Assembly (NCBI GenBank): GCA_964522435.1
Contig: CAZFUL010000004.1
Location: 54,360 to 118,359, forward strand
Length of the DNA stretch: 64,000 nt
DNA from: an uncultured Gammaproteobacteria bacterium
GTDB taxonomy: Bacteria; Patescibacteriota; Patescibacteriia; Magasanikbacterales; UBA922
Direction: 5' to 3'
Shown: positions 21,851-57,454 of the stretch, in pieces
Layout: every line of letters begins with the position of its first letter
Position numbering within the stretch: position 1 is the first letter of the stretch
Program-made: the position numbers and the translations under genes
Notes under the pieces: model-generated
Told to the model about the DNA's origin: nothing
Seen by the model: the letters and a program-made list of their open reading frames with translations, nothing else
Database searches by the model: none

Positions 21851-21880
21851 ACAACCCAATTACTGTAGGGTTGTTTTTGT
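21851..21880 (+). terminator. Intrinsic terminator after tRNA-Leu
   Basis: ACAACCCaattactgtaGGGTTGTttttt. Confidence 0.7.
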
Positions 21881-22015
21881 ATCCCCTTGTATATTGACAG
21901 AAAAGGGGATATATGCTAGGTTTGTTCACCTTTTGCGCCAGGACATATTGCGCAAGGGTGTTCCCACAACTAGGGATAGGCATTGCCATCCCACACTCAA
22001 AGAAGGAGAACGTCG

Positions 22016-22459: not shown

Positions 22460-22535
22460 GCTTCTTCGGCGCCATTGTCTCCACCTCGACGTATCGTCGG
22501 GGTGGGGGCATTCAAAAAAATATATGTTATCTGAT

Positions 22536-22558
22536 ACAGCCACGGGCTGTTTTTTTTA
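22536..22558 (+). terminator. Intrinsic terminator after the GC-island lipoprotein gene
   Basis: ACAGCCacgGGCTGTtttttttt. Confidence 0.7.
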
Positions 22559-22587
22559 TAACAAAAAACCCCGATGTCATCGAGGTA

Positions 22588-39105: not shown

Positions 39106-39122
39106 TATTATCTAGCTACTTT

Positions 39123-42100
39123 ATGAGAAAATTGTTTCCTGTTGCTCTTGTCTGTCTTTTTATCATCATGCAATTGTTTGGGGTATTTTTATTTGCCCAA
39201 CCAGCAAAAGCAGTATTTGGTGCAGGAGATATATCTTTTGATCCTCAAGCCTGGATACAACGAGAGAAGCATTATGCCGGAGATAAAGTAGAAGCAACCG
39301 TTACAGAGAGTGTTTTGTCTGCGGTCATGGGTTCTTTATTACATGCAACATCCTACTTTACGAGAAAATTGGCCTATGACGCAGCACTCTATGTTGCCTA
39401 TGGGGGAAAAGGACAAGGGTCGTTAGCCTACAAAGAGGGGGCGGCTGCGTATTTTGAAAAAGTGTCTAAAGATACGGCGGCAGATGCTATTGGTGAGTTG
39501 GGAAAACCATTTGGTTTAAATTTGTGTCAGATTCCCGATCTTCGCTTAAATATTTTTCTTCAAGTTGGCTTATCTAACCGATTTGCCGTAGAACCCACCC
39601 CCAATTGTCGCTGGCAAGATTTAAAAGAAGGCGGTATTTTTGATGGGGCTGCCTGGGTACAACGTTATGGAACAGAAGAGGGATTAGCAGAAACCTTTAG
39701 TGCGACCTTAAGTGTTGATAATACTGATTTTGGTATTGCCCTAGGCGCCATTGGACAAATTAGTGATTTGCAAGCGGGCGCAGAAGCAGCAGCGCGTCAA
39801 GACAGAACAGAAGGGCAAGGCTTTAAACCGTTGACCAGTCTTATTTCAGGTGATATTAAAACTCCCGCACAAATTGTGCGAGAAGAAACAAATGCGTTGA
39901 CGGCAAAACATCAAGGAGAATTATCTGCTGGGCAAATTGCCGGTATTTATGGCAGTGGGTTAAAGCAAGTTCCTGCCATGGCCGCGTCTGTCTTTTTAAA
40001 TAGTTTAACAGCAACATTATTAAATCGTTTACTCACAGAAGGGTTATTTCCAGAAGGAAGTGATGCGCCGGGCTTTCAATCAGGGGTGTTTTCATATACC
40101 TCGTCGCCATTTACGCAAAATTCACGAGCAAGAAATGCGTTTAGCTTTTTATTAACTATTCGACCAGAACAGTTAACTAACTTTAACATTGTGGCAGAAT
40201 TTGCCGCATGTCCAGAACACCCTGGGTTAAATAATTGTGTTATTGATAGTGACTTACAACAAGCCTTGGTTCAAGCAAAATCTGGGACTCCCATGACAAT
40301 TCAGGAGGCAATAGATATTGGCTATTTAAATAAAGATTGGCCCCTTATTTCACCACGCAATAATCAACATACCATTGAAAATTGCCAAGTGGGAAGATAT
40401 TGCTATTCCAATATTCAAAAAATGAGAAAAGTTCGCATCTTGCCTTTGGGATTTGAAATTGCAGCATTGCGTTCTGATCCAGATAATCCCTGGACATTAG
40501 GTCAAGTGGTACAAGGATTTGAAAAATGTAGACGAGATGACCCAAATAATCCAGATGCAATAACACCTGATCCTGCGTTTCCTTTTTGTCATTTAATTAA
40601 TCCAAATTGGACAATTGCGGTACCGTCAACTCGTTGTGAATTAAATACCTATGGTCCACAATTACATGCAGAAGATTCTCCAAGTCGTCGTCGAGAATGT
40701 ATGGATATCTCTACCTGTTTGGCAAAAGGGCCAAATGGAGAATGTATTGATCATGGCTACTGTACAAAAGAAAAAAATGTTTGGGATTTAAATGCGGATA
40801 CTTGTCCTGCGTATTACAATAGTTGTGATACCTATACAAACACGGAAGATCGTTTTATTGCGTCATATTTAACACGCAGTTTAGATTTTGGTCAATGTAC
40901 TGCTGACACGGTAGGCTGTCGCGCATTTAGTTTAGAACAAATTGCCGAAGATAATTGGGAATCTTCTGCAGCGGACCGTCGATTAGCCTATGTTGCACAA
41001 GGAAGAAACGAACGGATTCACTTTACCGATGCGATTACTGCCATCAGTTCTGTTTGTAGTGCCGCAAGTGATGGTTGTCGTGCGTTTATCCCTGCCGCGC
41101 GTTATATTAATGGTTTGTTTGTTCAAAATGAACAAGGCGCATATCAACAACAAGAGGATACAAGTACGTTATTGCACTTGAAACGGGCACCAGACTATTT
41201 GGGTTGTTATGATACCAATAGAGCAGCGAATTCTCCAGAAATTAATTGGCCAACAACGGTACAAGAAGCACAAAATGTTGTTGCGCAAGATGCTCGATGT
41301 GATGCGTATGCGTCTGTTTGTGTGGAAGAAGAAGTTGGTTGTTCTGCCTATCAACCAACAGAAGGTGGTGTAGAAATACCTGGTGTTATTGGGGCACAAA
41401 ATGTTTGTGATGCAAGTTGTGTTGGGTATGATACCTTTAAACAATTGGGCTATGCTGATGTGGGACAAGGATTTGAAGATCCGGTATTTCCCTTGTACTT
41501 TATTCCTCGTATTGCAGAAGAACAAATGGCAGCACAAGGAACAATTTGTAGCGCAGAATTTGTTGGCTGTGACGAATTTACCAATCTCGATACTGTTGCA
41601 AATGGGGGAGAAGGCTTAGAATATTACACGTCGTTAACCCATTGTGAACAGCCAAGTGCTGATGGGGCAAATAGTCGGGTGTATTATTCTTGGGAAGGGT
41701 CTGTTCGTGAAGGATTCTTATTACAAACACATCGCGTTAAACCGATTGATGAACGAGATTTGAGTTATATTCAAGATACCTTAGAAATAGACGTTGACTT
41801 TAATTATTCTTTGGGTTCACCCATGTATGCGAATGATTCTCGCGATGCGCTTGCTAGTGCGTCTGCGCGTTGTAATGAACAAACCTATAACCTAAAAATA
41901 AATAATCCAGGTGATCTTAATAGTGCTCCAGATAACTGTCATGCGCTGTATGACACCGATGGGAATGTTTTTTATCGATTGGTTGGAGAATTAGTTGTGG
42001 TTTCTGATGCCTGTCATGCACTCCGAAAAACAGAGCCAGAAATTTATGCAGATACCACATTAGAACAACGTAGCTGTAGTGCTGATCGTGGAGAATGGAA

Positions 42101-45100
42101 TGCTGCAGAAAATAGTTGTACCCGTTGTGTGGGTGGTGGTGAATATCGTAATGGTGCTTGTATTTATTGGACTATTTCTGATACAACAACACAGTCACAA
42201 TCTTGTCCTGCACAAGCAAATGAATGTCGCGCGTATGCAGGAAACAATGCAGGAAATAGGGTAAATATTTTATCGCAACTTTTTGAACCAAGTAGTGAAG
42301 ATGCCAATGCCTTAGTGCAAGCCCAAGATGGATGGGAAGGATTAGTGGGCTCTGTGGTACGGGTTGTTTCTGATGCTAGTGATGTAGGGCTGCATTCATT
42401 ATTGTTAGAACAGGGCCGAGCGCGTATGCCATTATCTCCAACGAGCACGCCAGGACTGGTAAGTAATCAACGCTATGAAATAACGTTTTGGGCGCGCGGA
42501 GATGCGGGAACCATTCGTTTAGACGTCGTACAAAATAATAATCGACTTGCTACCTTTGCAGAGCAGGTGAGTATTGGAAATTCTTGGAATCGCTATCGTG
42601 TGGGACCTATTGATATTGGCACTATTGCCTCTGATCAACCGCTGTATTTGGTTATTACACCAAATGATGGAAACAACCGAGTATTTTTAGATACCTTTGT
42701 CTTTACTCGTATTCAAGATGTTGTGTACCTTACCAAGGATTCTTGGAAAACACCCGAAGGCTACAATGCGCCACTGTTGTGTGATGCGGTTCCCCAAGAT
42801 ACGCTTCCTGGCGAAGCATTGGGTTGTCGTTCGTATCAAGAAGTAAACGCAAAAGGGGTAAGCCGGTATGCAACTGGTTTTGAACGACTCTGTCGTGAAA
42901 AAGCGGTTGGTTGTATGCCCGTATGGGACACCTACAATACGGTAAGTGGGGAATCACCAGAGTTACCTCATGTGTATAATGTGTGGTGTGCGGGTAACGA
43001 AGGCGCAAATTGTGAAATTCGGGTAAATAATATTTTGCTTGGCGCTTGTGTTGTTGAACGTGGTTCAGTAAATAACGACGGGCAAAGTGGTTGTTATATT
43101 CGAGATAATGATAGTTTGGATATTGCCTTACCTCAAGGCATCACGATTGCGAATTTGCCTGCGGGATCTGTAAGTGATTCAACGGTGTACATTCCTGCGG
43201 ATACGCCAAGCTCAACACCCCTCTTTTTAGCGAATACAGAAAAACATCGTTGTCAGGAGTCTCAATTAGGTTGTGAACTAACCGGCGCAGAGCAACAATT
43301 ATTACCAGATCCAACGGTTGCTGTTTCTTATGAACACCAAGAAACACGAATAAAAAATGATCCTGCTTCATATAATGAGGTACTATGTAACGATACCTTA
43401 ATTGGTTGTGGAGAATTTGACCATGCGGGAGCACGCTCATTTTTTAGAGATCCCCGCTTTACTGGGAATGCTCTTTGTTCGTATCGAGAACAAAGCGACG
43501 ATGGACAAAATTATGGTTGGTATATTAATGACCAAAGTGTTGGTCGCTGTAGTCAGAGCGATACGCTTTGTCGTGAAGATGGAGACTGTTCTGGCGCAAA
43601 CGATCTTTGTGTGAGTAAGGGCAATGTTGCTTGTTATGACGATTTTGTTCAACGTGGTGGAGAATTTGGATTACGCAGTAATGGCTCTCCCGAGTACGCA
43701 GGCTTTGTTGGTACTTGCCCTGCGCAGTTTAACGAATGTACCCAATTGGTTGATCCAGAAGATACCTCAAATATTAATCCCAAAGGCCAACCGTACTATG
43801 TGGTATTTAACGATAAAATCACCAACAGATTAGGACAATGTAATACCGTCAGTCTAGAAGAGGGCTGTGTGTTATTTGATAAAACCGATGATCCAAATAA
43901 ATTGTATAATGCCTCAGCAACCTACGCATTGAGTACAACACAAGATCCTCCGTATGGCCCTGTTGCGCCAGTAACCACCGCAAGTAATAATGACCCAAGT
44001 AGTATTAATACGAACTTGTTATTAAAGGTAGATAGAGATAGAGCATGTAGTGAGTGGTTAGATTGTAAAAACTATGTTCCGGTTACTAATGCACAAGGAC
44101 AGCAAGAATTTTTGTGTTCACAGTATAAAGCCTGTGAAAAATTGAGCCCAGATGGTCGCTGTATTGGCTGGGTAGATGATTTAGCGACTCCAGAAGATAG
44201 AACACGAGCCACAGATCGCTTGACCTATGAACAATATATACAACGAGGCACGTCTTGGTATGCGGAAGAATTTAGTGGATATTCGTTATACGACAAATAT
44301 CAAATTACCAATTTAGCCCAACTTGCATTTAATTTTGAAGAATTAAACGACGACGTTGCTGCCGCGCTTGTGCCAGTAACAAATGAAACATTTATTGCTC
44401 GTGTGCTCGATGATCGGTTATTCCGTTATAACAATGCGGAAGATTTGGACTGTATTGATGAAACCGTGACCTCAACAGATTGGCTCTCCTGTGGATTTGA
44501 CAATCAAGGGTTATGTTATAGAAAAAAATGTGTGTATCCAATAGATGGTGGCTTTGGTTTGGATGAGGTTGATACCACAAATGTGGCAGATATTCAGCGA
44601 TCACTCAACTTGCTTGAAGCAAACTCATGTAAAGGTTTCCCTGAAGAAGAAAGTCCTTTTTCTCAACGGATTATTCCTCCAGGAGGCATTCTTGATAGAG
44701 TATCTCAGTATGGCCTGAGAAAAGAGTTTGTCAAATACAATCAGGGATATGCGAATATTAATGTTTGCCAAAGTGGTGAATGTTCTTGTGAGTATCAAAA
44801 GGTATCATACAATCATGGCGTTGTTGATTATATTTCGTTTAATGACGCTGCGCAATCAACAATTGTTGGAATTTGTTCCGGAGGAGACGCGACTACTGCG
44901 GGATTACCCTGTACTCGTGATAGTGAATGTATTGGGCGAGGGGCAGCGAATCAGGGTGATGTTGCTCAAACAGGGACCTGTAATTTAGTGCGCGAAACAC
45001 AAAGTGTCTTTGGCTTACGTGGCTTTTGTTTAGAGCGAGACCTTTCTCGTCCATCTCCAGTGGACCCAAGTGGTTATGAATGTCTTACCTGGTTACCAGT

Positions 45101-48100
45101 ACAAACCTCTGTTGGTCGTGCTGATATCTTTAACAGTTCATTAAGTGCGGGATATAACCCGACTCTTGATGCAGAATCTGGATTTGGAAAATTATATTGT
45201 AGTAATGGAAGTACCTACGAACGAGTAAATGCACAAGATAATGAACGTATTGTGGATGCGTTACGAGATATTGCAGGGAATGTGGCAAATAGTGAAACCA
45301 TATTTCCTCCACATAATATCACCACCTGTCAGGTAGACGCAGATGGACAATTTGGTGGCGCTGAACCGCCAACAGCATTTCATAGTTGGAATTGTGGCGC
45401 GGATGATGATAATGGTATGCCTGTATCATTTTTAACCTCTTGGGCGAGAAAATATTTGGATGTTTCTGCACAAGTGTTGCGTATTGAAACACCAATTACC
45501 ACACCAGAAGATGGAAAATTCTATAATGTGCATGGAAATATTCCTAACTATAATCCCTTAAATGGCGGAAATGCTGGTGGTGGTTGTGGTTCCGGAGATG
45601 ACAACGGCAGTCCTGCCTGTACGATTCATAGTTTTGGACCCGTGAGCATTAACAATGTTCTTGATTACGGAACTATTATGCATCCCCCACGCTATTGGGA
45701 TACGCCCCGAGACAGTTTGCTGCAGTGTAGTGGACAAATGTGTATTGATACGACAGCAGCCTGTGATGATAAAAATAATCCAGATTGTTGGATTCGTTGT
45801 GGGAATGAAGTATTACAACCAGGATATAATGGCCCGTTAGAAGAGGTGGGTCCTCGTACTATTCCAGAATGTGGCTACTCATATAAATCATTCTATTACA
45901 CTACCGGAAGCGGTGTTACTGTGGCGTCTCATCCCTTATCACCAGAATTTGCCATGTACCAAAGTAACCGTCCTGCAAATGATCCAGAACTCGATGATTA
46001 TGTGACTGATGCGCGAGGAAATAGTATTTTGAATCGCCAAGACATAGAAAGCGTGATAACAGAAAAAGAATTAAATCGCGTGTATTTCTTGATTACCGGG
46101 TTTCCCCATAATGCAGATGGTCGATTTCCTACGATTATGAGTGATCGGGTGTACCTTGACTTTTTGAAACTACAAGAACAAGGGCATGATATTCGGCCAA
46201 AATCTGTTCCTGTTGCGGATGGGCGAGAACAATATTTTCCATTGCTCAACAATGATTTTGTGGATGGATCTGTTTACAGTTATTTGTTAACCACGGAAAA
46301 CGGCGGTACCTTTACCTATGATGATTATGATGATTTAAATCAATTAAATGGTCATTTAGTTTCGTTAAAAGATCTTGAGCGTAATCGTATACACCATCGC
46401 TATGTCATGATCTATCATAAAGATGCGAATGAAGAGTTAGAAGGAAATTTGGGAGATGCGGGACGCATTCCGGATGTATTTAATGAGCGCAATACCGTAT
46501 GTGCAGAACGAAGTAGTAATTGGTTTGCCATTGGGATGGACTTTAATGAAGATGGTGAATTCTTGGGCTATATTACCCGGTTCTGTAATGGATTTGCGGC
46601 AAGAGTCGATGACGGAAATGGTATTCAATTTGCGGTGGTAGCAACTAAAAATGTGCAATGTCTAGAAATACAAGAAGTACATCGCTCCAGTGGGGTTAAT
46701 CCCTTACAAGATAGTACCAACAAAGCCTGGACAAATCGCTTGTGGGTCGGTGCCTTACAAACCCATCCAAGCAACAATTATCGTGGCATTGGAGCTGGGG
46801 TTCCGTTAAAAGAACAACAAGCAACGCCTTTTGGGTCATTAGCCATTCCATCAGCGGCGTTAGTTGAGGGACAATTATTTCCATTGAAAAATTATTACTT
46901 TGTTGATCCGGCAACTGATGGTATTCCTTATAGTTGTGGAAATGGAAATAGTGATGTGGATTGTTATTTACTGCGTAATGGAAATGAAAAACGCTTTAGT
47001 ACCTATCAATATCCACAAAACGTGGTGAGTATTCTTGATGGAAAAGGAGCAGCAGATGGTATTGCCGCAATTAACCAATTGTTTGCAAAATCATTTACCA
47101 TTTCTCGCTTACTAGAAGGACGGTTACGAACCGTTGCTGTTGGTACGGATATTTCGTATCAAGAAGGAATTGATGGGGGACGATTATTACCACAAGTATA
47201 TTCATTAAATCCGGTAACCTGTGCGCTCGGTCGTGATCATTGTACGCCGGCAGAAGCCAATGCCTTTTCATTAGGCAGACGAAATGGGGTGGCGAATGCG
47301 GATTATGATAATAATGGCATTCCAGACGAAGATAGTGATGGAGATGGACAAGCGGATGCGCTCATTGAAACCTCTGGCAGTTATGTTGCGCAATTACGCT
47401 TCTTCGCCTTTGCAGATGATAATCGCATGCCGCTTCGTCGTATTATGATTGATTGGGGTGATGGAGAAGATATTACCAATGAAAGTATCAAAGGCTTATA
47501 TAAAAATAGAAAACCGGTGTGTGAGGTAAGTAATGATCCAGGCAAGAGTACCGTGGGATTATGTTTAACTGCAAATAATCGTCCAACCGGCATGACTTGT
47601 AGTGATACGCAAGCCTGTATTGTTGGTCAACGCTGTGCTTTACCGGATGAACTCGATCGTTTGGTAGCAGCAGGTACCTTATCTGCGGAGTATGGCAGTA
47701 AACGTTTTGGTAATTTAGAACGCAGTTGTGAACAGGGCAACTTTGATTATTATCACGAATATGTGTGTCAACAAAGTGATATTGAGGCACATGTCGCGTC
47801 TGTCTCTGCTGGTGGCATTGGCTTACCCTATGTCCGACAAGTGGGTGGGTTAGAGGATCAAGAACGCTTAAATGCCTTAGGCTTTACCAATCAAGACTAT
47901 GTTTGTGTGTTTCAACCCAAACTGCAAGTCATGGATAACTGGGGTTGGTGTACAGGCAGCTGTGTGCGGGATTATGATCGTAATGGAAATGAAATAGGTG
48001 CTCCTCAGGTAGGGTGTTATGAAAATTTTAGAGACCCCGAGGCTGCTATAATATTTCAATGTTCATCTGATAATGTGGGTGGTCGTGATAATCCTTGGAT

Positions 48101-48155
48101 ATTATATAAAAATGAAATTATTGTTGCTCCGGCTCTTGAACCAGAAAGAGACTAA
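39123..48155 (+). CDS. Giant (about 3010 aa) cysteine-rich secreted protein, unknown function
   Basis: Uninterrupted 9-kb frame. N-terminal signal MRKLFPVALVCLFIIMQLFGVFLFAQPAKA. Very high Cys content with no low-complexity repeats. An internal beta-sandwich/CBM-like stretch (EITFWARGDAGTIRLDVVQNNNRLATFAEQVSIGNSWNRYRVGPIDIG...LYLVITPNDGNNRVFLDTFVF). A C-terminal acidic Ca-loop-like run (NNGIPDEDSDGDGQAD). The ATG at 39123 is preferred over the TTG at 39102. Confidence 0.85.
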   Translation: MRKLFPVALVCLFIIMQLFGVFLFAQPAKAVFGAGDISFDPQAWIQREKHYAGDKVEATVTESVLSAVMGSLLHATSYFTRKLAYDAALYVAYGGKGQGSLAYKEGAAAYFEKVSKDTAADAIGELGKPFGLNLCQIPDLRLNIFLQVGLSNRFAVEPTPNCRWQDLKEGGIFDGAAWVQRYGTEEGLAETFSATLSVDNTDFGIALGAIGQISDLQAGAEAAARQDRTEGQGFKPLTSLISGDIKTPAQIVREETNALTAKHQGELSAGQIAGIYGSGLKQVPAMAASVFLNSLTATLLNRLLTEGLFPEGSDAPGFQSGVFSYTSSPFTQNSRARNAFSFLLTIRPEQLTNFNIVAEFAACPEHPGLNNCVIDSDLQQALVQAKSGTPMTIQEAIDIGYLNKDWPLISPRNNQHTIENCQVGRYCYSNIQKMRKVRILPLGFEIAALRSDPDNPWTLGQVVQGFEKCRRDDPNNPDAITPDPAFPFCHLINPNWTIAVPSTRCELNTYGPQLHAEDSPSRRRECMDISTCLAKGPNGECIDHGYCTKEKNVWDLNADTCPAYYNSCDTYTNTEDRFIASYLTRSLDFGQCTADTVGCRAFSLEQIAEDNWESSAADRRLAYVAQGRNERIHFTDAITAISSVCSAASDGCRAFIPAARYINGLFVQNEQGAYQQQEDTSTLLHLKRAPDYLGCYDTNRAANSPEINWPTTVQEAQNVVAQDARCDAYASVCVEEEVGCSAYQPTEGGVEIPGVIGAQNVCDASCVGYDTFKQLGYADVGQGFEDPVFPLYFIPRIAEEQMAAQGTICSAEFVGCDEFTNLDTVANGGEGLEYYTSLTHCEQPSADGANSRVYYSWEGSVREGFLLQTHRVKPIDERDLSYIQDTLEIDVDFNYSLGSPMYANDSRDALASASARCNEQTYNLKINNPGDLNSAPDNCHALYDTDGNVFYRLVGELVVVSDACHALRKTEPEIYADTTLEQRSCSADRGEWNAAENSCTRCVGGGEYRNGACIYWTISDTTTQSQSCPAQANECRAYAGNNAGNRVNILSQLFEPSSEDANALVQAQDGWEGLVGSVVRVVSDASDVGLHSLLLEQGRARMPLSPTSTPGLVSNQRYEITFWARGDAGTIRLDVVQNNNRLATFAEQVSIGNSWNRYRVGPIDIGTIASDQPLYLVITPNDGNNRVFLDTFVFTRIQDVVYLTKDSWKTPEGYNAPLLCDAVPQDTLPGEALGCRSYQEVNAKGVSRYATGFERLCREKAVGCMPVWDTYNTVSGESPELPHVYNVWCAGNEGANCEIRVNNILLGACVVERGSVNNDGQSGCYIRDNDSLDIALPQGITIANLPAGSVSDSTVYIPADTPSSTPLFLANTEKHRCQESQLGCELTGAEQQLLPDPTVAVSYEHQETRIKNDPASYNEVLCNDTLIGCGEFDHAGARSFFRDPRFTGNALCSYREQSDDGQNYGWYINDQSVGRCSQSDTLCREDGDCSGANDLCVSKGNVACYDDFVQRGGEFGLRSNGSPEYAGFVGTCPAQFNECTQLVDPEDTSNINPKGQPYYVVFNDKITNRLGQCNTVSLEEGCVLFDKTDDPNKLYNASATYALSTTQDPPYGPVAPVTTASNNDPSSINTNLLLKVDRDRACSEWLDCKNYVPVTNAQGQQEFLCSQYKACEKLSPDGRCIGWVDDLATPEDRTRATDRLTYEQYIQRGTSWYAEEFSGYSLYDKYQITNLAQLAFNFEELNDDVAAALVPVTNETFIARVLDDRLFRYNNAEDLDCIDETVTSTDWLSCGFDNQGLCYRKKCVYPIDGGFGLDEVDTTNVADIQRSLNLLEANSCKGFPEEESPFSQRIIPPGGILDRVSQYGLRKEFVKYNQGYANINVCQSGECSCEYQKVSYNHGVVDYISFNDAAQSTIVGICSGGDATTAGLPCTRDSECIGRGAANQGDVAQTGTCNLVRETQSVFGLRGFCLERDLSRPSPVDPSGYECLTWLPVQTSVGRADIFNSSLSAGYNPTLDAESGFGKLYCSNGSTYERVNAQDNERIVDALRDIAGNVANSETIFPPHNITTCQVDADGQFGGAEPPTAFHSWNCGADDDNGMPVSFLTSWARKYLDVSAQVLRIETPITTPEDGKFYNVHGNIPNYNPLNGGNAGGGCGSGDDNGSPACTIHSFGPVSINNVLDYGTIMHPPRYWDTPRDSLLQCSGQMCIDTTAACDDKNNPDCWIRCGNEVLQPGYNGPLEEVGPRTIPECGYSYKSFYYTTGSGVTVASHPLSPEFAMYQSNRPANDPELDDYVTDARGNSILNRQDIESVITEKELNRVYFLITGFPHNADGRFPTIMSDRVYLDFLKLQEQGHDIRPKSVPVADGREQYFPLLNNDFVDGSVYSYLLTTENGGTFTYDDYDDLNQLNGHLVSLKDLERNRIHHRYVMIYHKDANEELEGNLGDAGRIPDVFNERNTVCAERSSNWFAIGMDFNEDGEFLGYITRFCNGFAARVDDGNGIQFAVVATKNVQCLEIQEVHRSSGVNPLQDSTNKAWTNRLWVGALQTHPSNNYRGIGAGVPLKEQQATPFGSLAIPSAALVEGQLFPLKNYYFVDPATDGIPYSCGNGNSDVDCYLLRNGNEKRFSTYQYPQNVVSILDGKGAADGIAAINQLFAKSFTISRLLEGRLRTVAVGTDISYQEGIDGGRLLPQVYSLNPVTCALGRDHCTPAEANAFSLGRRNGVANADYDNNGIPDEDSDGDGQADALIETSGSYVAQLRFFAFADDNRMPLRRIMIDWGDGEDITNESIKGLYKNRKPVCEVSNDPGKSTVGLCLTANNRPTGMTCSDTQACIVGQRCALPDELDRLVAAGTLSAEYGSKRFGNLERSCEQGNFDYYHEYVCQQSDIEAHVASVSAGGIGLPYVRQVGGLEDQERLNALGFTNQDYVCVFQPKLQVMDNWGWCTGSCVRDYDRNGNEIGAPQVGCYENFRDPEAAIIFQCSSDNVGGRDNPWILYKNEIIVAPALEPERD

Positions 48156-48160
48156 CAAAA

Positions 48161-48191
48161 TAAAAAATCCCGATTCAATCGGGATTTTTTA
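48161..48191. terminator. Bidirectional intrinsic terminator after the giant gene
   Basis: aaaaaaTCCCGAttcaaTCGGGAtttttt. Confidence 0.8.
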
Positions 48192-48269
48192 TAGGACAGA
48201 ACAGAAAATAGCTTTTCTCCTTTGTCCTTTCTCCCGCCACAGTGTTGTGGCGGGGGTTGCAGAAGAGCA

Positions 48270-48842
48270 CTACTCGGACATCGAGCAGGTGGCTTCTGCA
48301 GTCATTGTGGGTCGTTCCGCGAAGATGGGTGGTCCATTGGGGCTATCGCGATGAAAGTCCCAGGTACAGTCCACGTCTTCATTCAACGAGAGCCATCCAT
48401 ATCGAGGCGTGGCTTGAGCAGAGTGGCCACAATACGCCCATCCTTCACGCAAAGTGGTGGTTGGGCACATGCAGGCCTCTCCTTCGCCGTTGTTGTCGCT
48501 GTCGAGCTGGTCGGGGTTCGGCACCTCGGGGCAGTTGTCGCAGGCATCGCCTACGCCATCACCGTCCGTGTCGGTCTGGTCGGGGTCGGGGTCGGCGGGA
48601 CAAATGTCCTCGCCGTCCTCGATCCCATCCGCGTCGTCATCGGGGGGCGGTGGCGGGGGGCAGTCTTCGCTGCACTCCGGGGGAGTGACGAGACAGCCTT
48701 GGGCTTCGTCCGCCTTGCCGTTGCAGTTGTCGACGGGGGGCATGGTGACCCCCCGACGCGGCTCGGAGGGGTCACCCTCGTCGCCGCAGCCACTGATGAC
48801 CGCCCCGAGCAGGGCGGCCAGAACCAGCGCAAAATAGCGCAT
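48270..48842 (-). CDS. Lipoprotein with thrombospondin type-3 calcium-binding repeats, encoded in a GC-rich island
   Basis: AAGGAGG, 5 nt, then [23 protein letters not shown] is a lipobox signal. [13 protein letters not shown] linker. TSP3 consensus [34 protein letters not shown]. Extreme GC3 bias. The longest ORF extends to 48935, but the SD and signal peptide favour 48842. Confidence 0.6.
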
Positions 48843-48915
48843 GGTCGCCTCCTTGCCGTGTCGTACACGGCGTTGCAATGGGCCCGGGGCTTCCGGGCAC
48901 AGGGAAATGAAAGGT

Positions 48916-48963
48916 ATTATAGAAACATCGTCCATGAATTATTCATGCACATGTTTCTATAAT
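48916..48963. repeat. 48-bp nested palindrome at the GC-island/native boundary
   Basis: ATTATAGAAACAT-cgtc-CATGAAT-T-ATTCATG-cac-ATGTTTCTATAAT. The 13-bp outer arms are perfect. The 7-bp inner palindrome is concentric. There is one indel in the connector. Confidence 0.8.
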
Positions 48964-49307
48964 ACGTTCAGTTCTCCTTAGTCGAAGAAGGCAACAACGA
49001 TAGAATTCTTTTATTGAAAAAGAACAAGAGGTAAAATTATTCTGTATAAATTAACTATTTCAGCAAAATTTGGCTTTGTCAAGCGCTTTTTATTGTTTTG
49101 TGGATAACTTGGTTACGAATCTACATCTGCCTGCCGGTAGGCAGGAATGAACACTCATTTACAAATAACTACAAATGTTCTTCGACAATATTCGTAGCCA
49201 TTTGTAGATTGGCATGTATTCGTATATTCGGAAATAGTAGATTCGTAAACTGTCTGTATGTTTATACACTGCATACCTATGCGACCTATTCTGCCCCATT
49301 CGCTTAT

Positions 49308-49338: not shown

Positions 49339-52293
49339 ATGGCTGAACACATAAAACAATTTACTCGCTTATCATATGCACGCATAGTCCGTCTGTTACC
49401 CAGTCGGCGTTTTCGCTTATTTAGTCTTATTTCTCTTGCACTTATTGTTATTTCTACGGTATTTATTTGGGCAGCACCTTCTTTTGCGCAAAATGTCCCG
49501 GTATCCGGAATTGGTGATGCCATTATTCGCTCATTGGTGTGGCTCATGCTGCAGTTGGCAACCGTGTTTATTCAGCTTACCATATTTTTATTGCGCTTTT
49601 TTATTTTAATTGCGGGGTATAATGATTATATTAATGCCCCGGTCGTATTATTGGGTTGGAACATGTTGCGTGATATTGCAAACATGTTTTTTATTGTGAT
49701 TTTAATGGTGATTGCCTTTGGCACCATGCTTGGTTTAGAACAGTATGAATGGAGAAAGTCATTGGTAAAGTTAGTTATTGCTGCCATTTTAGTCAATTTT
49801 AGTAATTTAATTGTGCAAGTCATGATAGACGTGGCACAAGTATTTACCATTACCTTTTTAAACGCGGTGGCTGGGGCAGCAGGGGGCAACCTGATTCAAA
49901 TGTTTAACTTTGATAAATTATTTGAAATTGTCGTTGGCAGTCCAGAAGATGTGAGTGGAGATTTACTCTTGAATTTGTTTGGGGCGGGCGTTATTTCGTT
50001 AGTGTTTGCGGGCATGGCCATGTTTACCATGCTTGCCTATGTGGTGGTGTTGTTAGCGCGTATGGTGGTGTTGTGGATGGGGATTATTTTGTCTCCCCTC
50101 ATGTTTATGTTTAGCGTATTACCGCAAACAAAAAAATATGCAGATGAATATTGGTCTGAAATAATAAATCATATTATTGCCGCGCCAGTGATGGTGTTCT
50201 TTTTGTGGCTATCGTTTGCTACCTTTGGGGGCAACCAAGGCGCTATTGCCCATATAGAAGATAATAATGCCATTAAAACAGCCCAAGGCAGCGGCTATTT
50301 ATCCAGTGCAGAAACCATAGGCGGCAGTAAACCGGCTATTGCGGGAATTAGTCAAGCGGGTACCCCAGAAAATATGGCTAATTTTGCAGTGGCCTTGGCC
50401 TTTTTATGGTTAGGGGTAGAACGGGTGCAAAAATTGGGCGTCAAAGGCGGCAGCTTACTATCAAAAGCAACCAACTTTGCTGGGAATGTTGCCACCATTG
50501 CGACCGGCTACGCTGCTGGCCGTTGGTTAGTTGGCAAAGGCACTGATGCGAGTATTGGATCACTCAAATATGTTGGGAATAGAATTCCTTTGGTTGGGGG
50601 TGCATCACTTAAAAATTATGGCGCAGCAATTTCGAGTACTTTTCAACGCAAAGGTGCGTTGGGCGTGTTAACTGCCGGAAATTTTTCTGGTATTGGTGGG
50701 GCGCAGAGTAAAATTAGAGCATCTGAACGAGCAAAGAACTGGGAAGAAAATGGCTTCTACAAAGGGACCGGTGGTCGTGCGGTTGGTTGGTTGGCCGCGC
50801 GGGTGTGGGAACCGTCTGAGCGAGCAGAAAAGCGGAGTCAAGATTGGGCTGCGGCGGCTGAACGCGTGAAAAAAATCCAAGAAGAATCATACTCAACCAG
50901 TGGCAGTCGTGCGGGGCAAGCAAAATTAGATGCCACTGTTGAGTTGAAAAAAGTAGAAGAAAAAGCAGCAGCAAAAGGAGCGCAAAAAATAACAGAGCGG
51001 CTAAAAGAAGCACGAGAAATTAAAGAAATTTATGACAAGTTAAAAGATCAAAATAATCGTCTTCCTGCGGACACACAACGCTCTGAAAAAGAATTACGTG
51101 AGCAAACACAAGAAGCGTATTTAGAAAAAGTAGCGCGCGAAAAAGGAGCTTCTACCAAAGAAAAAACACAACGCTTATTAGAACGTGATGGAGGGGTCGC
51201 AAGTCGTTTAGAGTTAGCAAATAAAGTCGCGACTGAAATTAAATCGACGGTGGGCTCAAAAGCGGCAAGTGAAGAAGGGGATATGAAAGAGCGTCATTTT
51301 ATTGAAGAAGAACAAGCAAGAGCGCGAGATAAAATTCGTGCAGGACTAAATTTACCAGAAATTCATTTGCCTGCTTTCCGAGATAGATATCAAAAAGAAA
51401 TTGAAGAATCCATGTCTGGGTTAAATTTTCGTGAAATTACGCGTCAAGCAGGTAATTTTATGGCACAAGGGTTACGTTCTCCAGAAATTGCTCGTGCGGC
51501 GGCAGCAACGCTGTCTGTGGCAATGAAACGTGGCTCAGAAACCGGGATGGCTGCCTTTAATGAAATGTTAATAGGCTTAGGCTTTGATGATAATGCCGCA
51601 CAAAATGTTGCCGCAGATGATATGCAAGGAAAACAACGTTTGTTGTTATCTGCATTATTGGGTGAGCGAGTAACTGAAACAGATAATCTTGATCAAAAAA
51701 TGGCAGAATTTGAACAAAAAGTAGGTGGGCCAGAAGCTGCCCAAACTATTTTAAAAAATTTGGATAGTAACCTTAAAGTCGCGGCAGCTGATGGTGCGGT
51801 AAATATGGCTGGGTTGTTTGATGACCGAACCGTCGATGCAAATGGTAAATTAAAAATAAAATTAGAAACAGACACTGCGAAATTTAAAGGAAATCGTATG
51901 TATGCCGCTAATGTAAATAATATTACCAAAGCGACTGGAGTAGAGGATATGATTGGTGAAAAAGGTACCTTACAAAAAACAAAACGTGATGCGCAAGGAA
52001 GAAAAATCTTAGATAGTGCCGGTAACGCGATTATGGAAGACGATATTCAAGCACAAGAACAATTGGCAACATTCTTAAATTCTGCGAAGCAAAATACACG
52101 GTTTAGCTCATTTTTTGTGGAATCAATTGTGAGATTAAATCAAAATGATCAAGCCGGCTTACGAAAAGTATTAGATAAACTGAATCAAGAAGCGAGAGCT
52201 GCAATAGAAAAATTATTAACCGCTCCATCCCCCACAGGTTCCGCTGCAGCTGGAGGTGCACCAATTGGACCTGGTCCTGGTGCCGGACCATAA
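49339..52293 (+). CDS. VirB6/TrbL-like polytopic membrane protein with a long charged coiled-coil C-terminal extension
   Basis: At least 6 TM helices in the first 350 aa, in a TrbL/VirB6-like arrangement. They are followed by about 600 aa of K/E/A-rich predicted coiled coil and a Gly/Pro/Ala tail (GSAAAGGAPIGPGPGAGP). Lies in the VirB4 operon. Confidence 0.45.
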   Translation: MAEHIKQFTRLSYARIVRLLPSRRFRLFSLISLALIVISTVFIWAAPSFAQNVPVSGIGDAIIRSLVWLMLQLATVFIQLTIFLLRFFILIAGYNDYINAPVVLLGWNMLRDIANMFFIVILMVIAFGTMLGLEQYEWRKSLVKLVIAAILVNFSNLIVQVMIDVAQVFTITFLNAVAGAAGGNLIQMFNFDKLFEIVVGSPEDVSGDLLLNLFGAGVISLVFAGMAMFTMLAYVVVLLARMVVLWMGIILSPLMFMFSVLPQTKKYADEYWSEIINHIIAAPVMVFFLWLSFATFGGNQGAIAHIEDNNAIKTAQGSGYLSSAETIGGSKPAIAGISQAGTPENMANFAVALAFLWLGVERVQKLGVKGGSLLSKATNFAGNVATIATGYAAGRWLVGKGTDASIGSLKYVGNRIPLVGGASLKNYGAAISSTFQRKGALGVLTAGNFSGIGGAQSKIRASERAKNWEENGFYKGTGGRAVGWLAARVWEPSERAEKRSQDWAAAAERVKKIQEESYSTSGSRAGQAKLDATVELKKVEEKAAAKGAQKITERLKEAREIKEIYDKLKDQNNRLPADTQRSEKELREQTQEAYLEKVAREKGASTKEKTQRLLERDGGVASRLELANKVATEIKSTVGSKAASEEGDMKERHFIEEEQARARDKIRAGLNLPEIHLPAFRDRYQKEIEESMSGLNFREITRQAGNFMAQGLRSPEIARAAAATLSVAMKRGSETGMAAFNEMLIGLGFDDNAAQNVAADDMQGKQRLLLSALLGERVTETDNLDQKMAEFEQKVGGPEAAQTILKNLDSNLKVAAADGAVNMAGLFDDRTVDANGKLKIKLETDTAKFKGNRMYAANVNNITKATGVEDMIGEKGTLQKTKRDAQGRKILDSAGNAIMEDDIQAQEQLATFLNSAKQNTRFSSFFVESIVRLNQNDQAGLRKVLDKLNQEARAAIEKLLTAPSPTGSAAAGGAPIGPGPGAGP

Positions 52294-54448: not shown

Positions 54449-54883
54449 ATGCAGCAATTTATTGTTCCACAATTTATTGATGTTGAAGATAAAATTTTTG
54501 GACCAATTACTACCAGACAGTTTTTGATTTTGCTCATAGCGGGAGGCATTATTTATTTATCCTTTGAATTATTTGATTTTGCCTTATTTCTTATTATTGC
54601 TATTTTTTTAGGCGGCTTTTCGTTGGTGTTAGCGTTTATAAAAATTAACGGACAAGCATTTCATTATTTTTTATTAAATATTTTTGAAAGTTTTCATAAA
54701 CCTGCTCGGCGTATGTGGCAAAAATCATATTCCAAAAAAGAATTGGATATGCTCCGAAACGCGGTTGTGGAATTTGTTTCAGAAAAAACAGCGGTGACGC
54801 CGGTGCGTCGTGAGCGTATTCGTGATCTATCTTTGCTGGTAAATACGGGCGGCTATTATCGTCCGGATGATGATATTGTGTAA
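54449..54883 (+). CDS. Small two-TM membrane protein, PrgI/VirB3-like
   Basis: 144 aa. Hydrophobic hairpin (FLILLIAGGIIYLSFELFDFALFLIIAIFLGGFSLVLAFI). Positioned just upstream of VirB4, as VirB3/PrgI are in Gram-positive T4SS. Confidence 0.4.
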   Translation: MQQFIVPQFIDVEDKIFGPITTRQFLILLIAGGIIYLSFELFDFALFLIIAIFLGGFSLVLAFIKINGQAFHYFLLNIFESFHKPARRMWQKSYSKKELDMLRNAVVEFVSEKTAVTPVRRERIRDLSLLVNTGGYYRPDDDIV

Positions 54884-54889: not shown

Positions 54890-55576
54890 ATGGCAAAAAA
54901 TCAAGCAAAAAAAACAGCAAATAAAAAAGCGTCAACACAAGCTCATCTTCCGATTGCCGAAGTAAAAGACAGTGTGGTGATTATGAAAGACGGAACACTG
55001 CGGGCAGTTATGATGACCTCGAGTATTAATTTTGCCTTAAAATCAGAAGATGAACAAAATGCCTTAATTTCTTCGTATGTGGGATTTTTAAATGGGCTTG
55101 ATTTTCCTTTACAAATCGTCGTGCAATCACGGCAATTACAAATTCAGCCCTACATTGATAAATTGTTGCAACGAGAACAAACGCAAAAAAATGAATTATT
55201 GCGCATTCAAATTGCCGATTATCGTGCCTTTGTGCAAGAGTTGGTAGATATTGGTCAAATTATGACCAAACGCTTTTATGTTGTGGTTCCCTATGATCCC
55301 TTATCAAATAAAAAGAAAAGTTTTTGGACACGCATGAAAGAAGCCTTAAAACCAACCGTGAGTATTCGATTAAAAGAAAAACGATTTTTAGAACGAAAAG
55401 AAAGTTTGCAAGTGCGGGTGCGTCAGGTAATTCAAGGATTAGAAAGTATGGGGCTGCAAGTAGTCCTCCTTGATACGCAAGCCTTAATTGAATTGTACTA
55501 CAGTAGTTATAATCCCGATATTGCCTTTAATCAACCCATGAGACCGCTCGATGAATTACAAATTGAAGAGTTGTAA
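54890..55576 (+). CDS. VirB4/TraC N-terminal domain, split from the ATPase by an in-frame TAA
   Basis: LPIAEVKDSVVIMKDGTLRAVMMTSSINFALKSEDEQNALISSYVGFLNGLDFPLQIVVQSR resembles VirB4 N-terminal regions. Same frame as 55586-57454, separated only by a TAA plus 9 nt. Confidence 0.5.
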   Translation: MAKNQAKKTANKKASTQAHLPIAEVKDSVVIMKDGTLRAVMMTSSINFALKSEDEQNALISSYVGFLNGLDFPLQIVVQSRQLQIQPYIDKLLQREQTQKNELLRIQIADYRAFVQELVDIGQIMTKRFYVVVPYDPLSNKKKSFWTRMKEALKPTVSIRLKEKRFLERKESLQVRVRQVIQGLESMGLQVVLLDTQALIELYYSSYNPDIAFNQPMRPLDELQIEEL

Positions 55577-55585: not shown

Positions 55586-57454
55586 ATGGCATTTAAACCG
55601 ATTCAACAACATAATAACGAGCAAAAAAAACAACTCAAAGAGAGTGCTTTGCGTCGTTCAAAACAAGTACAGGAAGATGTAATTTCTCTTGAAGAGGAAC
55701 GGGTGTACCGAGAAGGAACCGTCACTATTCGTGATTTGATTGCTCCCTCTGCGCTGCGTATTGATTCTACCTATCTTCAGTTAGGAGAAATTTATGTACG
55801 CACCTTTTTTGTTGTTACGTATCCACGCTATATTGCGGTTGGCTGGAGCGCACCTATCCTCAATTTGAACATCACCATGGATATTAGCATGTTTTTTTAT
55901 CCGGTAACCTCTGGCATTATTTTAAAACAGCTTAAGAAAAAAGTAGGCGCGATTCAAGCACAAATTAGTTCTGATGTAGAAAAAGGAGCGCCCCGCGACC
56001 CCATGAGAGAAACGGCGTTACGAGATATTGAACAACTGCGCGATGATTTGACCCAAGGGGTGGAACATTTTTTTCAATTTGCCTTTTATGTCACGGTGTA
56101 TGGAAAAAATAAAGACGAATTAGACAAAATGTCTGAAACGGTTGAAAATATTTTTGGTTCTCGTTTGATTTACAGTAAACATGTGTTGTATCAAGCAGAA
56201 CAAGGATTTACGTCTACACTGCCACTCGGACTTGATGAACTCATGATTCAGTTTAACATGAATTCGTCTCCTATTGCCTCGTCATTTCCTTTTATTTCTT
56301 CTGAGTTAACGAGTGATGATGGTATTTTGTATGGGATTAATCGTCATAACAATAGTCTTATTTTATTTGATCGCTTTTCACTGCAAAATGCGAATATGGT
56401 GGTATTTGCTACTTCTGGTGCAGGAAAGTCCTATGCCGTAAAACTAGAAGTATTGCGTAGTCTTATGATGGGGATTGATGTTATTATTATCGATCCAGAA
56501 AAAGAATATGAACACTTAACAGAAGCGGTCGGTGGAACTTATGTCAACATTTCGCTTTCTTCAGAAAGCATGGTCAATCCATTTGATTTACCCCGTCCAC
56601 TCGCCGGGCAACAAATTGCGACGGAAGATATTATCCGCAGTGCCGTCATCACCATTAAGGGCTTGATTCGTATTATGTTTGGTCAAATGACCACGGAGCA
56701 AGATTCTATTATGGATCGCGCGCTGTTGGAAACCTATGCCAAAAAAGATATTACGAGTAGTGCAGACTTAAGTCGTGTTGAACCCCCAATCATGCAGGAT
56801 TTGCTCGATGTGTTAGAAGGAATGCAAGGCGCAGAAGAATTAGTCGTAAAATTACAAAAATTTACCACAGGAACATTTTCTGGGTTGTTTAATGCGCCCA
56901 CAAACGTCAACATTAATAATCAATTAGTGGTATTTAGTGTTCGTGATTTAGAAGATGAGCTTCGTCCCATGTCTATTTATTCGTTGATTAATTATATTTG
57001 GAACGTGGTGAGAAGTGAAAGAAAAAAACGTTTGCTTATTATTGACGAAGCCTGGTGGCTCATGACCAATGAAGATAGTGCAAAATTTATTTATGCGCTG
57101 GTAAAACGTTGTCGCAAATATTATTTAGGGGTAACGACTATTACCCAAGACGTGAATGACTTTTTAGGCTCGCCCTATGGCCGCGCTATTGTGACCAATT
57201 CTGCATTGCAATTACTACTTAAGCAATCACCTGCCGCAGTTGAGCTGGTACAAAAAACCTTTATGCTCACAGAAGGGGAGCGCTATCTGTTATTAGAAAG
57301 TGCCGTGGGAGAAGGGATTTTCTTTGCCGGATTAAAGCATGCGGCAATTAAAGTGGTTGCGTCCTATACAGAAGATCAGTTGATAACATCAGATCCAAAA
57401 CAATTATTGGATATTGAACGGGCGAAAAAAGAATTTGAACAAGAAATGAAGTAA
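55586..57454 (+). CDS. Type IV secretion/conjugation ATPase, VirB4/TraC/PrgJ family (C-terminal two-thirds)
   Basis: Walker A VVFATSGAGKSYAVK. Walker B LLIIDEAWWLM. VirB4-type middle domain (TYLQLGEIYVRTFFVVTYPRYIAVGWSAPILN). Lacks about 200 N-terminal residues, which the upstream ORF supplies. Confidence 0.9.
   Translation: MAFKPIQQHNNEQKKQLKESALRRSKQVQEDVISLEEERVYREGTVTIRDLIAPSALRIDSTYLQLGEIYVRTFFVVTYPRYIAVGWSAPILNLNITMDISMFFYPVTSGIILKQLKKKVGAIQAQISSDVEKGAPRDPMRETALRDIEQLRDDLTQGVEHFFQFAFYVTVYGKNKDELDKMSETVENIFGSRLIYSKHVLYQAEQGFTSTLPLGLDELMIQFNMNSSPIASSFPFISSELTSDDGILYGINRHNNSLILFDRFSLQNANMVVFATSGAGKSYAVKLEVLRSLMMGIDVIIIDPEKEYEHLTEAVGGTYVNISLSSESMVNPFDLPRPLAGQQIATEDIIRSAVITIKGLIRIMFGQMTTEQDSIMDRALLETYAKKDITSSADLSRVEPPIMQDLLDVLEGMQGAEELVVKLQKFTTGTFSGLFNAPTNVNINNQLVVFSVRDLEDELRPMSIYSLINYIWNVVRSERKKRLLIIDEAWWLMTNEDSAKFIYALVKRCRKYYLGVTTITQDVNDFLGSPYGRAIVTNSALQLLLKQSPAAVELVQKTFMLTEGERYLLLESAVGEGIFFAGLKHAAIKVVASYTEDQLITSDPKQLLDIERAKKEFEQEMK

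Follow-up and report, generated by a model that had tools for sequence, protein, structure and literature searches.

How does a strongly GC-rich gene come to stand in an AT-rich bacterial locus, and what keeps its composition? The question is raised by a 64-kb stretch of contig CAZFUL010000004.1, called the window here at its full length, in which a lipoprotein gene on the minus strand lies in a GC-rich segment (island 1) between the gene of a giant secreted protein and the first gene of a type IV secretion system (T4SS)-like operon. Genes of atypical GC content are routinely taken for recent horizontal transfers or contaminants and are removed from metagenome-assembled genomes. An earlier note on this DNA had proposed a very recent, un-ameliorated transfer from a high-GC donor, or a chimeric assembly. 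Our analysis leads to a different answer. The best explanation as a whole, which we hold to be probable without being firm, is that island 1 is a resident transcription unit with long-maintained GC-richness, encoding a small, lipid-anchored, fast-evolving envelope protein.

A GC-rich island covering a transcription unit

The GC content reaches 0.61–0.72 at about 48226–48905 (windows of 150–300 bp), while the mean of the stretch is 0.41 (standard deviation 0.053, 200-bp windows). The coding sequence (CDS) of the lipoprotein gene, at 48273–48842 on the minus strand with the stop codon TAG at 48270–48272, has a GC content of 0.646, with 0.67, 0.54 and 0.73 at the first, second and third codon positions (GC1, GC2 and GC3). 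The giant gene, the VirB6-like gene and the other neighbours of island 1 have a GC3 of 0.28–0.33. Both the composition (GC 0.65 versus 0.41, GC3 0.73 versus about 0.30) and the codon usage of island 1 are atypical for the host, and the codon choices of its gene (AAG, GAG, CAG, GAC) are those of high-GC genomes. By dinucleotide signature the island is borderline, with a delta* of 150 from the window background where the 95th percentile of random 690-bp chunks is 145. The GC skew is unremarkable. The GC-rich segment on the opposite strand of an AT-rich locus that the earlier note had described is thus confirmed, except that it extends beyond the CDS and is not the sole island: one comparably strong GC island is found elsewhere in the 64 kb, at 21926–22550 (island 2, 21935–22512).

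The boundaries of island 1 are sharp, within about 50 bp, and the GC content does not decay into the 3' end of the giant gene. At its upstream side the island includes a GC-rich 5' leader (48843–48905, minus strand), delimited from the sequence and the minimum free energy structure. The leader contains the Shine–Dalgarno (SD) sequence AAGGAGG at 48848–48854, 5 nt ahead of the ATG at 48842, the hairpin GCCGTGT-acg-ACACGGC at 48855–48871 and a second hairpin at about 48883–48897. At its downstream side the inverted repeat search found a GC hairpin, CCCGCCACA-gtgt-TGTGGCGGG (48233–48254, minus strand), 16 nt past the stop codon, with a 9-bp stem, a 4-nt loop and no T-tract. Since the GC-rich stretch takes in both the leader of about 65 nt and the 3' hairpin, it covers the transcription unit beyond the CDS alone; from the GC profile and the family mean profile described below, the whole unit of 5' leader, CDS and 3' hairpin occupies 48226–48905 on the minus strand.

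The 3' end had previously been described as having only a GC hairpin without a U-tract, a style of terminator typical of high-GC genomes. The hairpin is present, but the inverted repeat and terminator scans also identified a canonical bidirectional intrinsic terminator at 48160–48192, with perfect 16-bp arms and A/T runs on both sides, about 40 nt past the GC hairpin on the minus strand. It scored as terminator-like on that strand and is common to the convergent giant gene and lipoprotein gene, which weakens the idea of a high-GC style of termination. Exactly at the upstream edge of the island lies an AT-rich 18-bp inverted repeat, TATTATAGAAACAT...ATGTTTCTATAATA (48911–48968), which is 94% complementary and contains TATAAT; a palindrome is nested in its 22-nt spacer. 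A role as promoter or operator is conceivable, although the promoter scan gave better sigma-70-like sites at 49082–49036 on the minus strand than at the inverted repeat. Imperfect direct repeats at 48215–48226 and 48972–48983 (11 of 12 positions matching), either target-site-like or due to chance, bracket the island.

The lipoprotein and its coding sequence

Island 1 almost certainly holds a real gene. Its codon periodicity is clear (GC3 > GC1 > GC2), and the open reading frame (ORF) list, the translation and GC3 define a lipoprotein of 190 aa starting with MRYF; an upstream ATG at 48935 would give a form of 221 aa, which is the protein called by NCBI (P0001). The signal peptide (48786–48842, minus strand) ends with the lipobox I-S-G-C and Cys19 (codon at 48786–48788), in agreement with the lipobox pattern [LVI][ASTVI][GAS]C, as judged by pattern and not by a signal predictor. 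A near-identical N-terminus is found in P0248, the only full-length homologue. Residues 67–124 approximately (48471–48644, minus strand) form an acidic Pro/Asp linker with thrombospondin type-3 (TSP3) calcium-binding repeats, and residues 89–112 match the Pfam family TSP_3 (PF02412) with an E-value of 7.1e-8 and 32.5 bits against a cut-off of 25 bits. Alignment with P0248, which does not have this part, identifies it as a lineage-specific insert. Pfam gave nothing besides TSP_3. The remaining residues 125–190 (48273–48470, minus strand) make up a small Cys/Trp C-terminal domain, for which the exhaustive phmmer search returned P0001 itself and P0248 as the only credible full matches. The lipoprotein with a signal, a poly-Pro/Asp linker and a TSP3 repeat that had been read from the sequence is therefore borne out. 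An AlphaFold2 model from the two-sequence alignment reached a predicted local distance difference test score of 35 and is unusable. The lipoprotein-processing proteins Lgt and LspA did not turn up in general Pfam scans of about 26 window proteins, in which no search aimed at them was made.

Could island 1 primarily be a structured non-coding RNA or DNA element, with an incidental ORF? GC-rich islands in AT-rich genomes are often non-coding RNAs, the folding z-scores reported below are strongly negative with dense hairpin arrays, and both strands of island 1 contain long ORFs. However, the codon periodicity, the recurrence of SD sequence, ATG, signal and lipobox in about 30 loci, the TSP_3 match above the Pfam threshold and the homologue P0248 with conserved Cys and Trp columns all argue for a protein-coding gene, and Rfam gave no family at its gathering cut-off or at E ≤ 1. 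We regard a non-coding element as hardly credible.

A conserved slot in related genomes

Two relatives of the locus, L003 and L004, were fetched via VirB6-like proteins 39–42% identical to that of the window, and 80 further loci were obtained from an alignment-based scan of GTDB species genomes. A scan of GTDB genomes with the single VirB6-like protein had given no relative, whereas the alignment-based scan did return loci; no relative was found in viral contigs. In both L003 and L004 the giant gene and the VirB6-like gene are separated by a GC-rich island (0.55–0.65 versus 0.40–0.42) that encodes a minus-strand lipoprotein. The C-terminus of the window's giant protein has a detectable homologue in 34 related loci. 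A convergent minus-strand lipoprotein gene starts 100–250 bp past the giant gene in 30 of them, and in the other four (L025, L031, L052 and L074) the slot is empty, with the giant gene followed directly by the VirB6-like gene. When a lipobox and a GC3 exceeding the locus background by 0.2 or more were both required in a strict automated test, 24 of 71 loci qualified, 23 with the gene on the minus strand; inspection by eye brought in about 10 others. In most members the GC3 of the slot lipoprotein gene is 0.6–0.96, typically 0.7–0.9, with the value of 0.96 in L081, on backgrounds of 0.2–0.5. Only 35 GC islands of at least 300 bp occur in about 1 Mb of related genomes; at least 20 of these pass a strict lipobox test, and about 10 more were judged by eye to carry lipoprotein signals.

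The slot lipoproteins share an architecture of signal, acidic disordered linker and small Cys/Trp-rich C-terminal domain. They are hyperdivergent, with homology detectable only within sub-clusters, and despite this sequence turnover the SD sequence and ATG, the lipoprotein signal and the lipobox recur in about 30 loci. Pfam gave almost nothing on nine other slot lipoproteins and P0248, the matches being PEGA in L016 and weak Ig-like or CarboxypepD_reg in L007. The window gene has all five features of this family, namely convergence within about 250 bp of the giant gene, signal, acidic linker, Cys-rich C-terminal domain and high GC3. We consider it quite likely that the gene of island 1 is the resident slot gene of the giant-protein/T4SS locus. 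As the VirB6-like protein of the window is at most 49% identical overall to that of any relative, an undetectable Magasanikbacterial homologue is to be expected if the lipoproteins diverge at the rate observed in the family.

These results bear directly on the dating of the island. The earlier note had held that the same GC-rich gene at this position in related genomes, with gradual amelioration, would indicate an old, resident gene; genes of this kind were looked for and found in 30 of the 34 loci, GC-rich in most. A GC-rich convergent lipoprotein gene in the same slot of so many independently assembled loci speaks against the proposed very recent, un-ameliorated transfer and against a chimeric assembly. 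The suggestion that the position fits an accessory envelope protein, on the other hand, holds, the slot being between the giant and the VirB6-like genes of a T4SS-like locus. In two loci (L072, 4347–5354, and L073, 4522–5745) the slot is filled by two tandem GC-rich lipoprotein genes. Many of the loci L010–L084 come from records titled 'uncultured Gammaproteobacteria bacterium' and have a Patescibacteria-type arrangement all the same, so that these titles look like mislabels.

A chimeric assembly, in which a segment from another high-GC organism of the sample was joined by the assembler, would be consistent with the sharp compositional boundaries. High-GC organisms with related lipoproteins do exist, and the collections searched contained no further copy of this exact gene. 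Nevertheless, island 1 comprises one gene unit, complete to its ends, with a terminator on one side and an AT-rich promoter region on the other; its slot and orientation are exactly those of about 30 relatives assembled independently, and both of its flanks continue the syntenic locus. Furthermore, island 2 is reproduced in an independent Logan contig (L001; SRR12762285, 1205 bp), which spans 21759–22963 from the tRNA through island 2 into the RNase P RNA gene and is 100% identical to the window over island 2, with both junctions reproduced base for base. Thus, GC-rich lipoprotein islands in this organism are real DNA, and a chimera is very improbable.

Divergence and persistence of the GC content

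Among pairs of loci with detectable homology, the divergence of the lipoprotein goes in step with that of the VirB6-like gene and is about four times faster. The lipoprotein identity is 45% between L003 and L004, where the N-terminal part of the VirB6-like protein is 84% identical; the corresponding values are 32% and 78% for L003 and L010, 34% and 75% for L004 and L010, and 48% and 76% for L023 and L038. Since the identity tracks that of the flanking gene, this argues for vertical co-inheritance with roughly four-fold faster protein evolution. At fourfold degenerate sites the identity of the lipoprotein genes is 0.36–0.38 versus 0.28–0.31 expected by composition, which is near saturation; for the VirB6-like genes, likewise not far from saturation, it is 0.39–0.50 versus 0.25–0.27. 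GC3 is held at 0.72–0.85 in the lipoprotein gene of each lineage, versus 0.27–0.33 in the flanks. With synonymous sites near saturation and GC3 still high, the composition is maintained rather than un-ameliorated. A neutral relic would be expected to decay, so that the composition appears to be held by selection or by a gene-specific bias. As judged by eye, the GC3 of the islands shows no obvious tracking of the background GC3, and this comparison therefore cannot separate an equilibrium reached in situ from import.

A hairpin-dense unit

Averaged over 30 family members, the GC content goes up about 80 nt ahead of the start codon, is 0.6–0.67 through the CDS, stays high for about 50 nt past the stop codon and then falls to 0.29–0.37. 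A leader hairpin adjoins the GGAGG in most members, and in nearly all of them a strong GC hairpin (−15 to −31 kcal/mol), mostly without a T-tract, is found 0–50 nt past the stop codon. The 3' trailers of L003, L004, L010 and L046 share a hairpin in which the outer stem is conserved (CGTCCCCTG...CAGG.G.GACG) and the inner stems differ; when five 3' hairpins were folded to a consensus, the result was weak, with three compensatory pairs only.

Compared with shuffled controls, the folding z-score is −6.8 for the window unit and −3.9 for its CDS alone, −4.5 for the unit of island 2 and −3.1 for that of P0248. An AT-rich window gene gave −2.5 and the pyruvate kinase segment neighbouring P0248 gave 0.0. 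The mean over 20 family units is −6.5, versus −0.66 for VirB6-like controls of the same length. When the CDSs only are considered (22 of them), the mean z is −3.4 with dinucleotide shuffles and −3.5 with synonymous-codon shuffles, which preserve the protein, the codon usage and GC3. Perfect hairpins within the coding sequences number 48, where 7.8 are expected. The unit of L053 (5020–5487, minus strand) is an extreme case: it is nearly a string of perfect 8–14-bp GC stem-loops with 74% of its bases paired, its CDS has seven perfect hairpins versus 0.4 expected, and the z-score is about −13 to −17 for the CDS alone and −13 to −28 depending on the extent taken. It still encodes a family-like lipoprotein.

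P0248 and the link to high-GC bacteria

The homologue searches spanned 1.8–5.8 billion proteins. With the full-length protein the results were swamped by TSP3-repeat matches: many TSP3 proteins are 56–64% identical over about 60–70 residues, which cover 30–37% of the window protein, and the best of them are named MYXO-CTERM, Archangium and Myxococcaceae. With the C-terminal 68 residues the exhaustive phmmer search found one credible relative, P0248 (194 aa). P0248 is collinear with the window protein from Met1 to the C-terminal TCSM and is 43% identical over 169 aligned residues (pairwise BLASTP E-value 2e-14), with a common N-terminus MRYF...GAV.GCGD, conserved Cys and Trp columns, and a Cys-rich insert in place of the TSP3 repeats. 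A profile of the two proteins found no third member among 5.8 billion proteins. The candidates P0242–P0247 and P0249–P0251 are repeat proteins and were set aside as chance or compositional matches, P0243, P0246 and P0247 after inspection.

The gene of P0248 lies on a 5.1-kb contig with 71% GC (L085; GCA_963169625.1, CAUJGL010001211.1), next to genes for a pyruvate kinase (GC3 0.92), another TSP3 lipoprotein and a collagen-like protein. Its 3' untranslated region contains a hairpin whose outer stem, CCCCCGCC...GGCGGGAG, is common with the window hairpin. A perfect 37-bp direct repeat flanks the gene (768–804 and 1451–1487 of the contig); neither this repeat, searched as a 22-mer, nor the window hairpin junction has an exact match in JGI metagenomes. 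The affinity to high-GC lineages that the earlier note had expected from homology searches is thereby found.

Its timing is another matter. At fourfold sites the window gene and that of P0248 agree at 18 of 39 positions, where 13.3 are expected, and with this near-saturation they are not a recent donor–recipient pair. At this divergence, with a protein identity of 43%, any transfer was not 'very recent', except from a closer donor that has not been sampled.

Xenologous import of the window gene, and perhaps of many slot genes, from a high-GC bacterium with a Myxococcota-like lipoprotein repertoire is the leading alternative. The imported gene would have filled the slot or replaced its occupant at a date younger than the amelioration time, which relaxes the 'very recent' transfer of the earlier note. 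The only homologue points that way, since P0248 combines a near-identical signal peptide and the shared outer stem of the 3' hairpin with a high-GC contig, and the 37-bp repeat around its gene suggests mobility or duplication. The myxobacterial names of the best TSP3 matches, the high-GC type of codon choice and the 12-nt imperfect direct repeats around island 1 fit the same picture. The delta* of island 1 is 69 to the lipoprotein region of L085, compared with 150 to its own genome; for the pooled Magasanikbacterial islands the distance to that region is 45, compared with distances to their own genomes of 166 for the islands and 135 for the L085 region. The failure of the window protein to join the other slot lipoproteins by profile can be added. 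On the other side, the slot is filled by a GC-rich lipoprotein gene in 30 of 34 relatives, where it co-diverges with the flanks while keeping its GC, and near synonymous saturation excludes a direct recent transfer between these two lineages. No integrase or transposase was found at island 1 among the 26 window proteins scanned and no tRNA lies there, and its flanking repeats are of a size often due to chance. Moreover, the two lipoprotein genes occupy the first 1.45 kb of L085, with a GC content of 0.60–0.66 versus 0.73–0.79 in the remainder; they are thus the low-GC part of that contig, so that exchange may have gone in either direction. Taken together, we consider import unlikely. The connection to high-GC bacteria through this one homologue may mark the original source of the composition.

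What keeps the gene GC-rich

For a resident gene with maintained composition, the cause that we favour, tentatively, is selection for an unusually base-paired, GC-rich transcript. The selected elements would be the leader hairpin, the strong SD sequence, the hairpin-rich coding sequence and the 3' GC hairpin, and such a transcript could serve as a long-lived or tightly controlled mRNA. The product consists of a signal peptidase II signal with Cys19, an acidic linker, in this lineage with TSP3 calcium-binding repeats, and the Cys/Trp domain. Its gene fills a clade-wide slot directly downstream of the giant surface-protein gene, with which it converges, and ahead of the VirB6-like gene in the monoderm-type T4SS locus. 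By this position, the protein would most likely serve in the envelope as an accessory to the giant protein or to the T4SS apparatus, a role that may be loosely comparable to that of small, fast-evolving VirB7-type lipoproteins.

Several observations weigh against the resident gene and its selected transcript. An iterated profile from eight slot lipoproteins did not recover the window protein above decoys, and its place in the slot family is one of position, orientation, architecture and composition only. No second copy of the 190-aa or 221-aa protein (P0001) was found by exact-protein look-up, and a 28-mer scan of JGI metagenomes was also empty; an exact-protein look-up of the window's VirB6-like protein likewise gave no record. 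The sole homologue in a 71% GC genome, together with the dinucleotide signature, is as compatible with an external gene pool as with maintenance in situ. GC-richness is not shared by the ribosomal or other highly expressed genes of these genomes, and 'mRNA stability' by itself would therefore not single out this gene. The folding signal is heterogeneous, with z near 0 in L046, L065, L072 and L010. It is also present on the antisense strand (z −5.3 versus −6.0 for the sense strand), and the sense strand is the more stable one in only 6 of 22 cases; with such strand symmetry, selection at the RNA level is not separated from a cause at the DNA level or in mutation.

A local mutational or recombinational process would fit this symmetry. 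The candidates are GC-biased gene conversion, at a recombination hotspot on which diversifying selection acts, and template-switch (quasi-palindrome) mutagenesis. The hairpin signal is of the Watson–Crick type, palindromic stems are six-fold enriched in the coding sequences with L053 as the extreme, the gene is very fast (about 45% identity where the VirB6-like protein keeps 84%), and most slot genes are head-on to the surrounding operons. But the boundaries of the island are sharp (about 50 bp) and match the transcription unit, with no decay as from conversion tracts; island 2 is co-directional with its neighbours and equally GC-rich; and no paralogous donor cassettes were seen in the window. 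The effects of GC-biased gene conversion reported in bacteria are far below a shift of GC3 from 0.3 to 0.8. Such a process is improbable as the cause.

Selection on the transcript of a resident gene can also be combined with the high-GC connection. In this proposal, which we put forward as a doubtful one, a gene-specific GC-rich, hairpin-dense regime would be kept across Magasanikbacteria (ABY1-class Patescibacteria) for a very long time by selection on a hyper-stable or other special transcript or on a DNA hairpin array, the gene pool would be shared with high-GC, possibly host, bacteria, and the lipoprotein would be a host-derived or host-mimicking contact factor.

The locus and the other GC-rich genes of the window

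Judged by its gene content, the window belongs to the ordinary core chromosome of a Magasanikbacteria-like Patescibacterium, with genes for UvrA, ValRS, ArgRS, GroEL, KsgA, a histidine kinase, bactofilin, glycosyltransferases, tRNA-Leu and RNase P RNA. A scan of 26 window proteins, with about 20 further ORFs outside it, showed no integrase, reverse transcriptase or transposase, and hence neither an integron cassette, as an integrase with attC, nor a diversity-generating retroelement, as a reverse transcriptase with a template repeat. No repeat of island 1 was found within its 1-kb surroundings.

The locus itself reads giant gene, island 1, VirB6/TrbL-like gene, two unknown genes, PrgI, TraC/TrsD-like gene, VirB4-like gene, an unknown gene and a ComF-like phosphoribosyltransferase gene. 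The ORF of the giant gene (39102–48155, plus strand) encodes a Cys-rich secreted protein of 3017 aa with homologous C-termini in the 34 loci. Just upstream of it, a 235-aa protein (38398–39105, plus strand) has a bacterial TSP3 repeat (PF18884, E-value 3.9e-7) at a normal, AT-rich composition (GC3 0.31), so that TSP3 repeats also occur outside the GC-rich gene of the locus. The first gene of the T4SS-like operon (49339–52293, plus strand) encodes a VirB6/TrbL-like polytopic membrane protein with a weak Pfam match to TrbL. Its homologues, of which the closest is 49% identical, carry PF19590 (TrbL_3) and are named Magasanikbacteria or Patescibacteria. Pfam matches further identify the PrgI/VirB3-like gene (54449–54883; PrgI), the TraC/TrsD-like gene (54890–55576; TraC_F_IV) and the VirB4-like ATPase gene (55586–57454; P-loop_TraG/AAA_10/DUF87).

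Island 2 (21935–22512, plus strand; GC 0.65, GC3 0.83) lies between the adjoining tRNA-Leu(GAG) gene (21759–21842) and the RNase P RNA gene (22592–22991, minus strand). Its CDS at 22016–22459 is followed by a GC hairpin at 22481–22505 and encodes a 147-aa, Ala/Lys/Gln-rich, coiled-coil-looking lipoprotein (MNRLFVLGMVLCLAVVGCC...) with no Pfam match. Direct repeats at 21909–21918 and 22520–22529 (9 of 10 positions matching), target-site-like or due to chance, bracket this island as well. The Logan contig shows four mismatches to the window, all in the RNase P RNA at 22834–22841, which may reflect either a loop that varies between strains or a mistake in local assembly. A third GC-rich gene, milder in its composition, at 16814–17500 (plus strand; GC 0.52, GC3 0.64) encodes a multi-pass membrane protein of about 205 aa with a weak MtN3/SWEET-like Pfam match (E-value 3.6e-4, under the cut-off).

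Comparison with known systems

Patescibacteria T4SSs contain VirB4, PrgI/VirB3, TrsD and VirB6 and are of the monoderm MPF-FATA kind, without the VirB7/VirB9/VirB10 outer-membrane core (PMC12102498). The VirB6/TrbL-like, PrgI, TraC/TrsD-like and VirB4-like ATPase genes of the window match the locus described there. A term search of that survey gave no mention of the slot lipoprotein, the giant neighbour gene or a compositional anomaly, and we found nothing relevant in the literature on GC-rich lipoproteins in Patescibacteria or Magasanikbacteria. Within the Patescibacteria T4SS locus, the slot gene would be an almost universal partner of the giant surface protein gene that had so far gone unremarked. 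In a cultured Patescibacterium, T4SS genes have been reported as essential for epibiotic growth, according to a study cited in PMC12102498. Island 1 would stand as a counter-example to the usual reading of atypical GC, with composition as a maintained trait of one gene that recurs at one slot over a deep clade. A gene pool shared with high-GC bacteria, if true, could point to the hosts of these Patescibacteria, and the lipoprotein gene offers a handle on mRNA fate and envelope localisation.

With the VirB7-type lipoproteins of diderm T4SSs the window protein shares its small size, its place within a T4SS cluster and very fast evolution. The resemblance is in role only, as the Patescibacteria system is monoderm MPF-FATA and has no VirB7/VirB9/VirB10 core (PMC12102498), and the gene of island 1 is on the opposite strand and tied to the giant gene. 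A classical un-ameliorated genomic islet would likewise deviate in GC and GC3, have a foreign-looking codon usage and be matched by a homologue in some high-GC genome. Unlike such an islet, island 1 is kept in the same slot over a deep clade, co-diverges with its flanks, retains its GC through synonymous turnover and has no mobility genes near it among the 26 window proteins scanned. Like the TSP3-repeat lipoproteins and MYXO-CTERM proteins of high-GC bacteria, the window protein has a TSP_3 repeat, in its case behind a lipoprotein signal and an acidic linker; only the repeat is common to them and the window protein, whose N- and C-terminal parts match only P0248, itself without TSP3.

The E. 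coli lpp and ompA mRNAs are very stable, hairpin-rich transcripts of envelope proteins, and lpp does not deviate from its genome in composition. The window gene is comparable as a small envelope lipoprotein gene for whose transcript an unusual degree of base pairing is predicted, including stem-loops at the 5' and 3' ends. It differs in being compositionally deviant, and its strand-symmetric folding makes a DNA-level cause possible. The Borrelia vls locus of a surface lipoprotein is GC-rich in an AT-rich genome and fast-evolving. The window gene is alike in being a GC-rich, fast-evolving lipoprotein gene, and it differs from vls in having no silent cassettes or conversion repeats in the window and an unremarkable GC skew.

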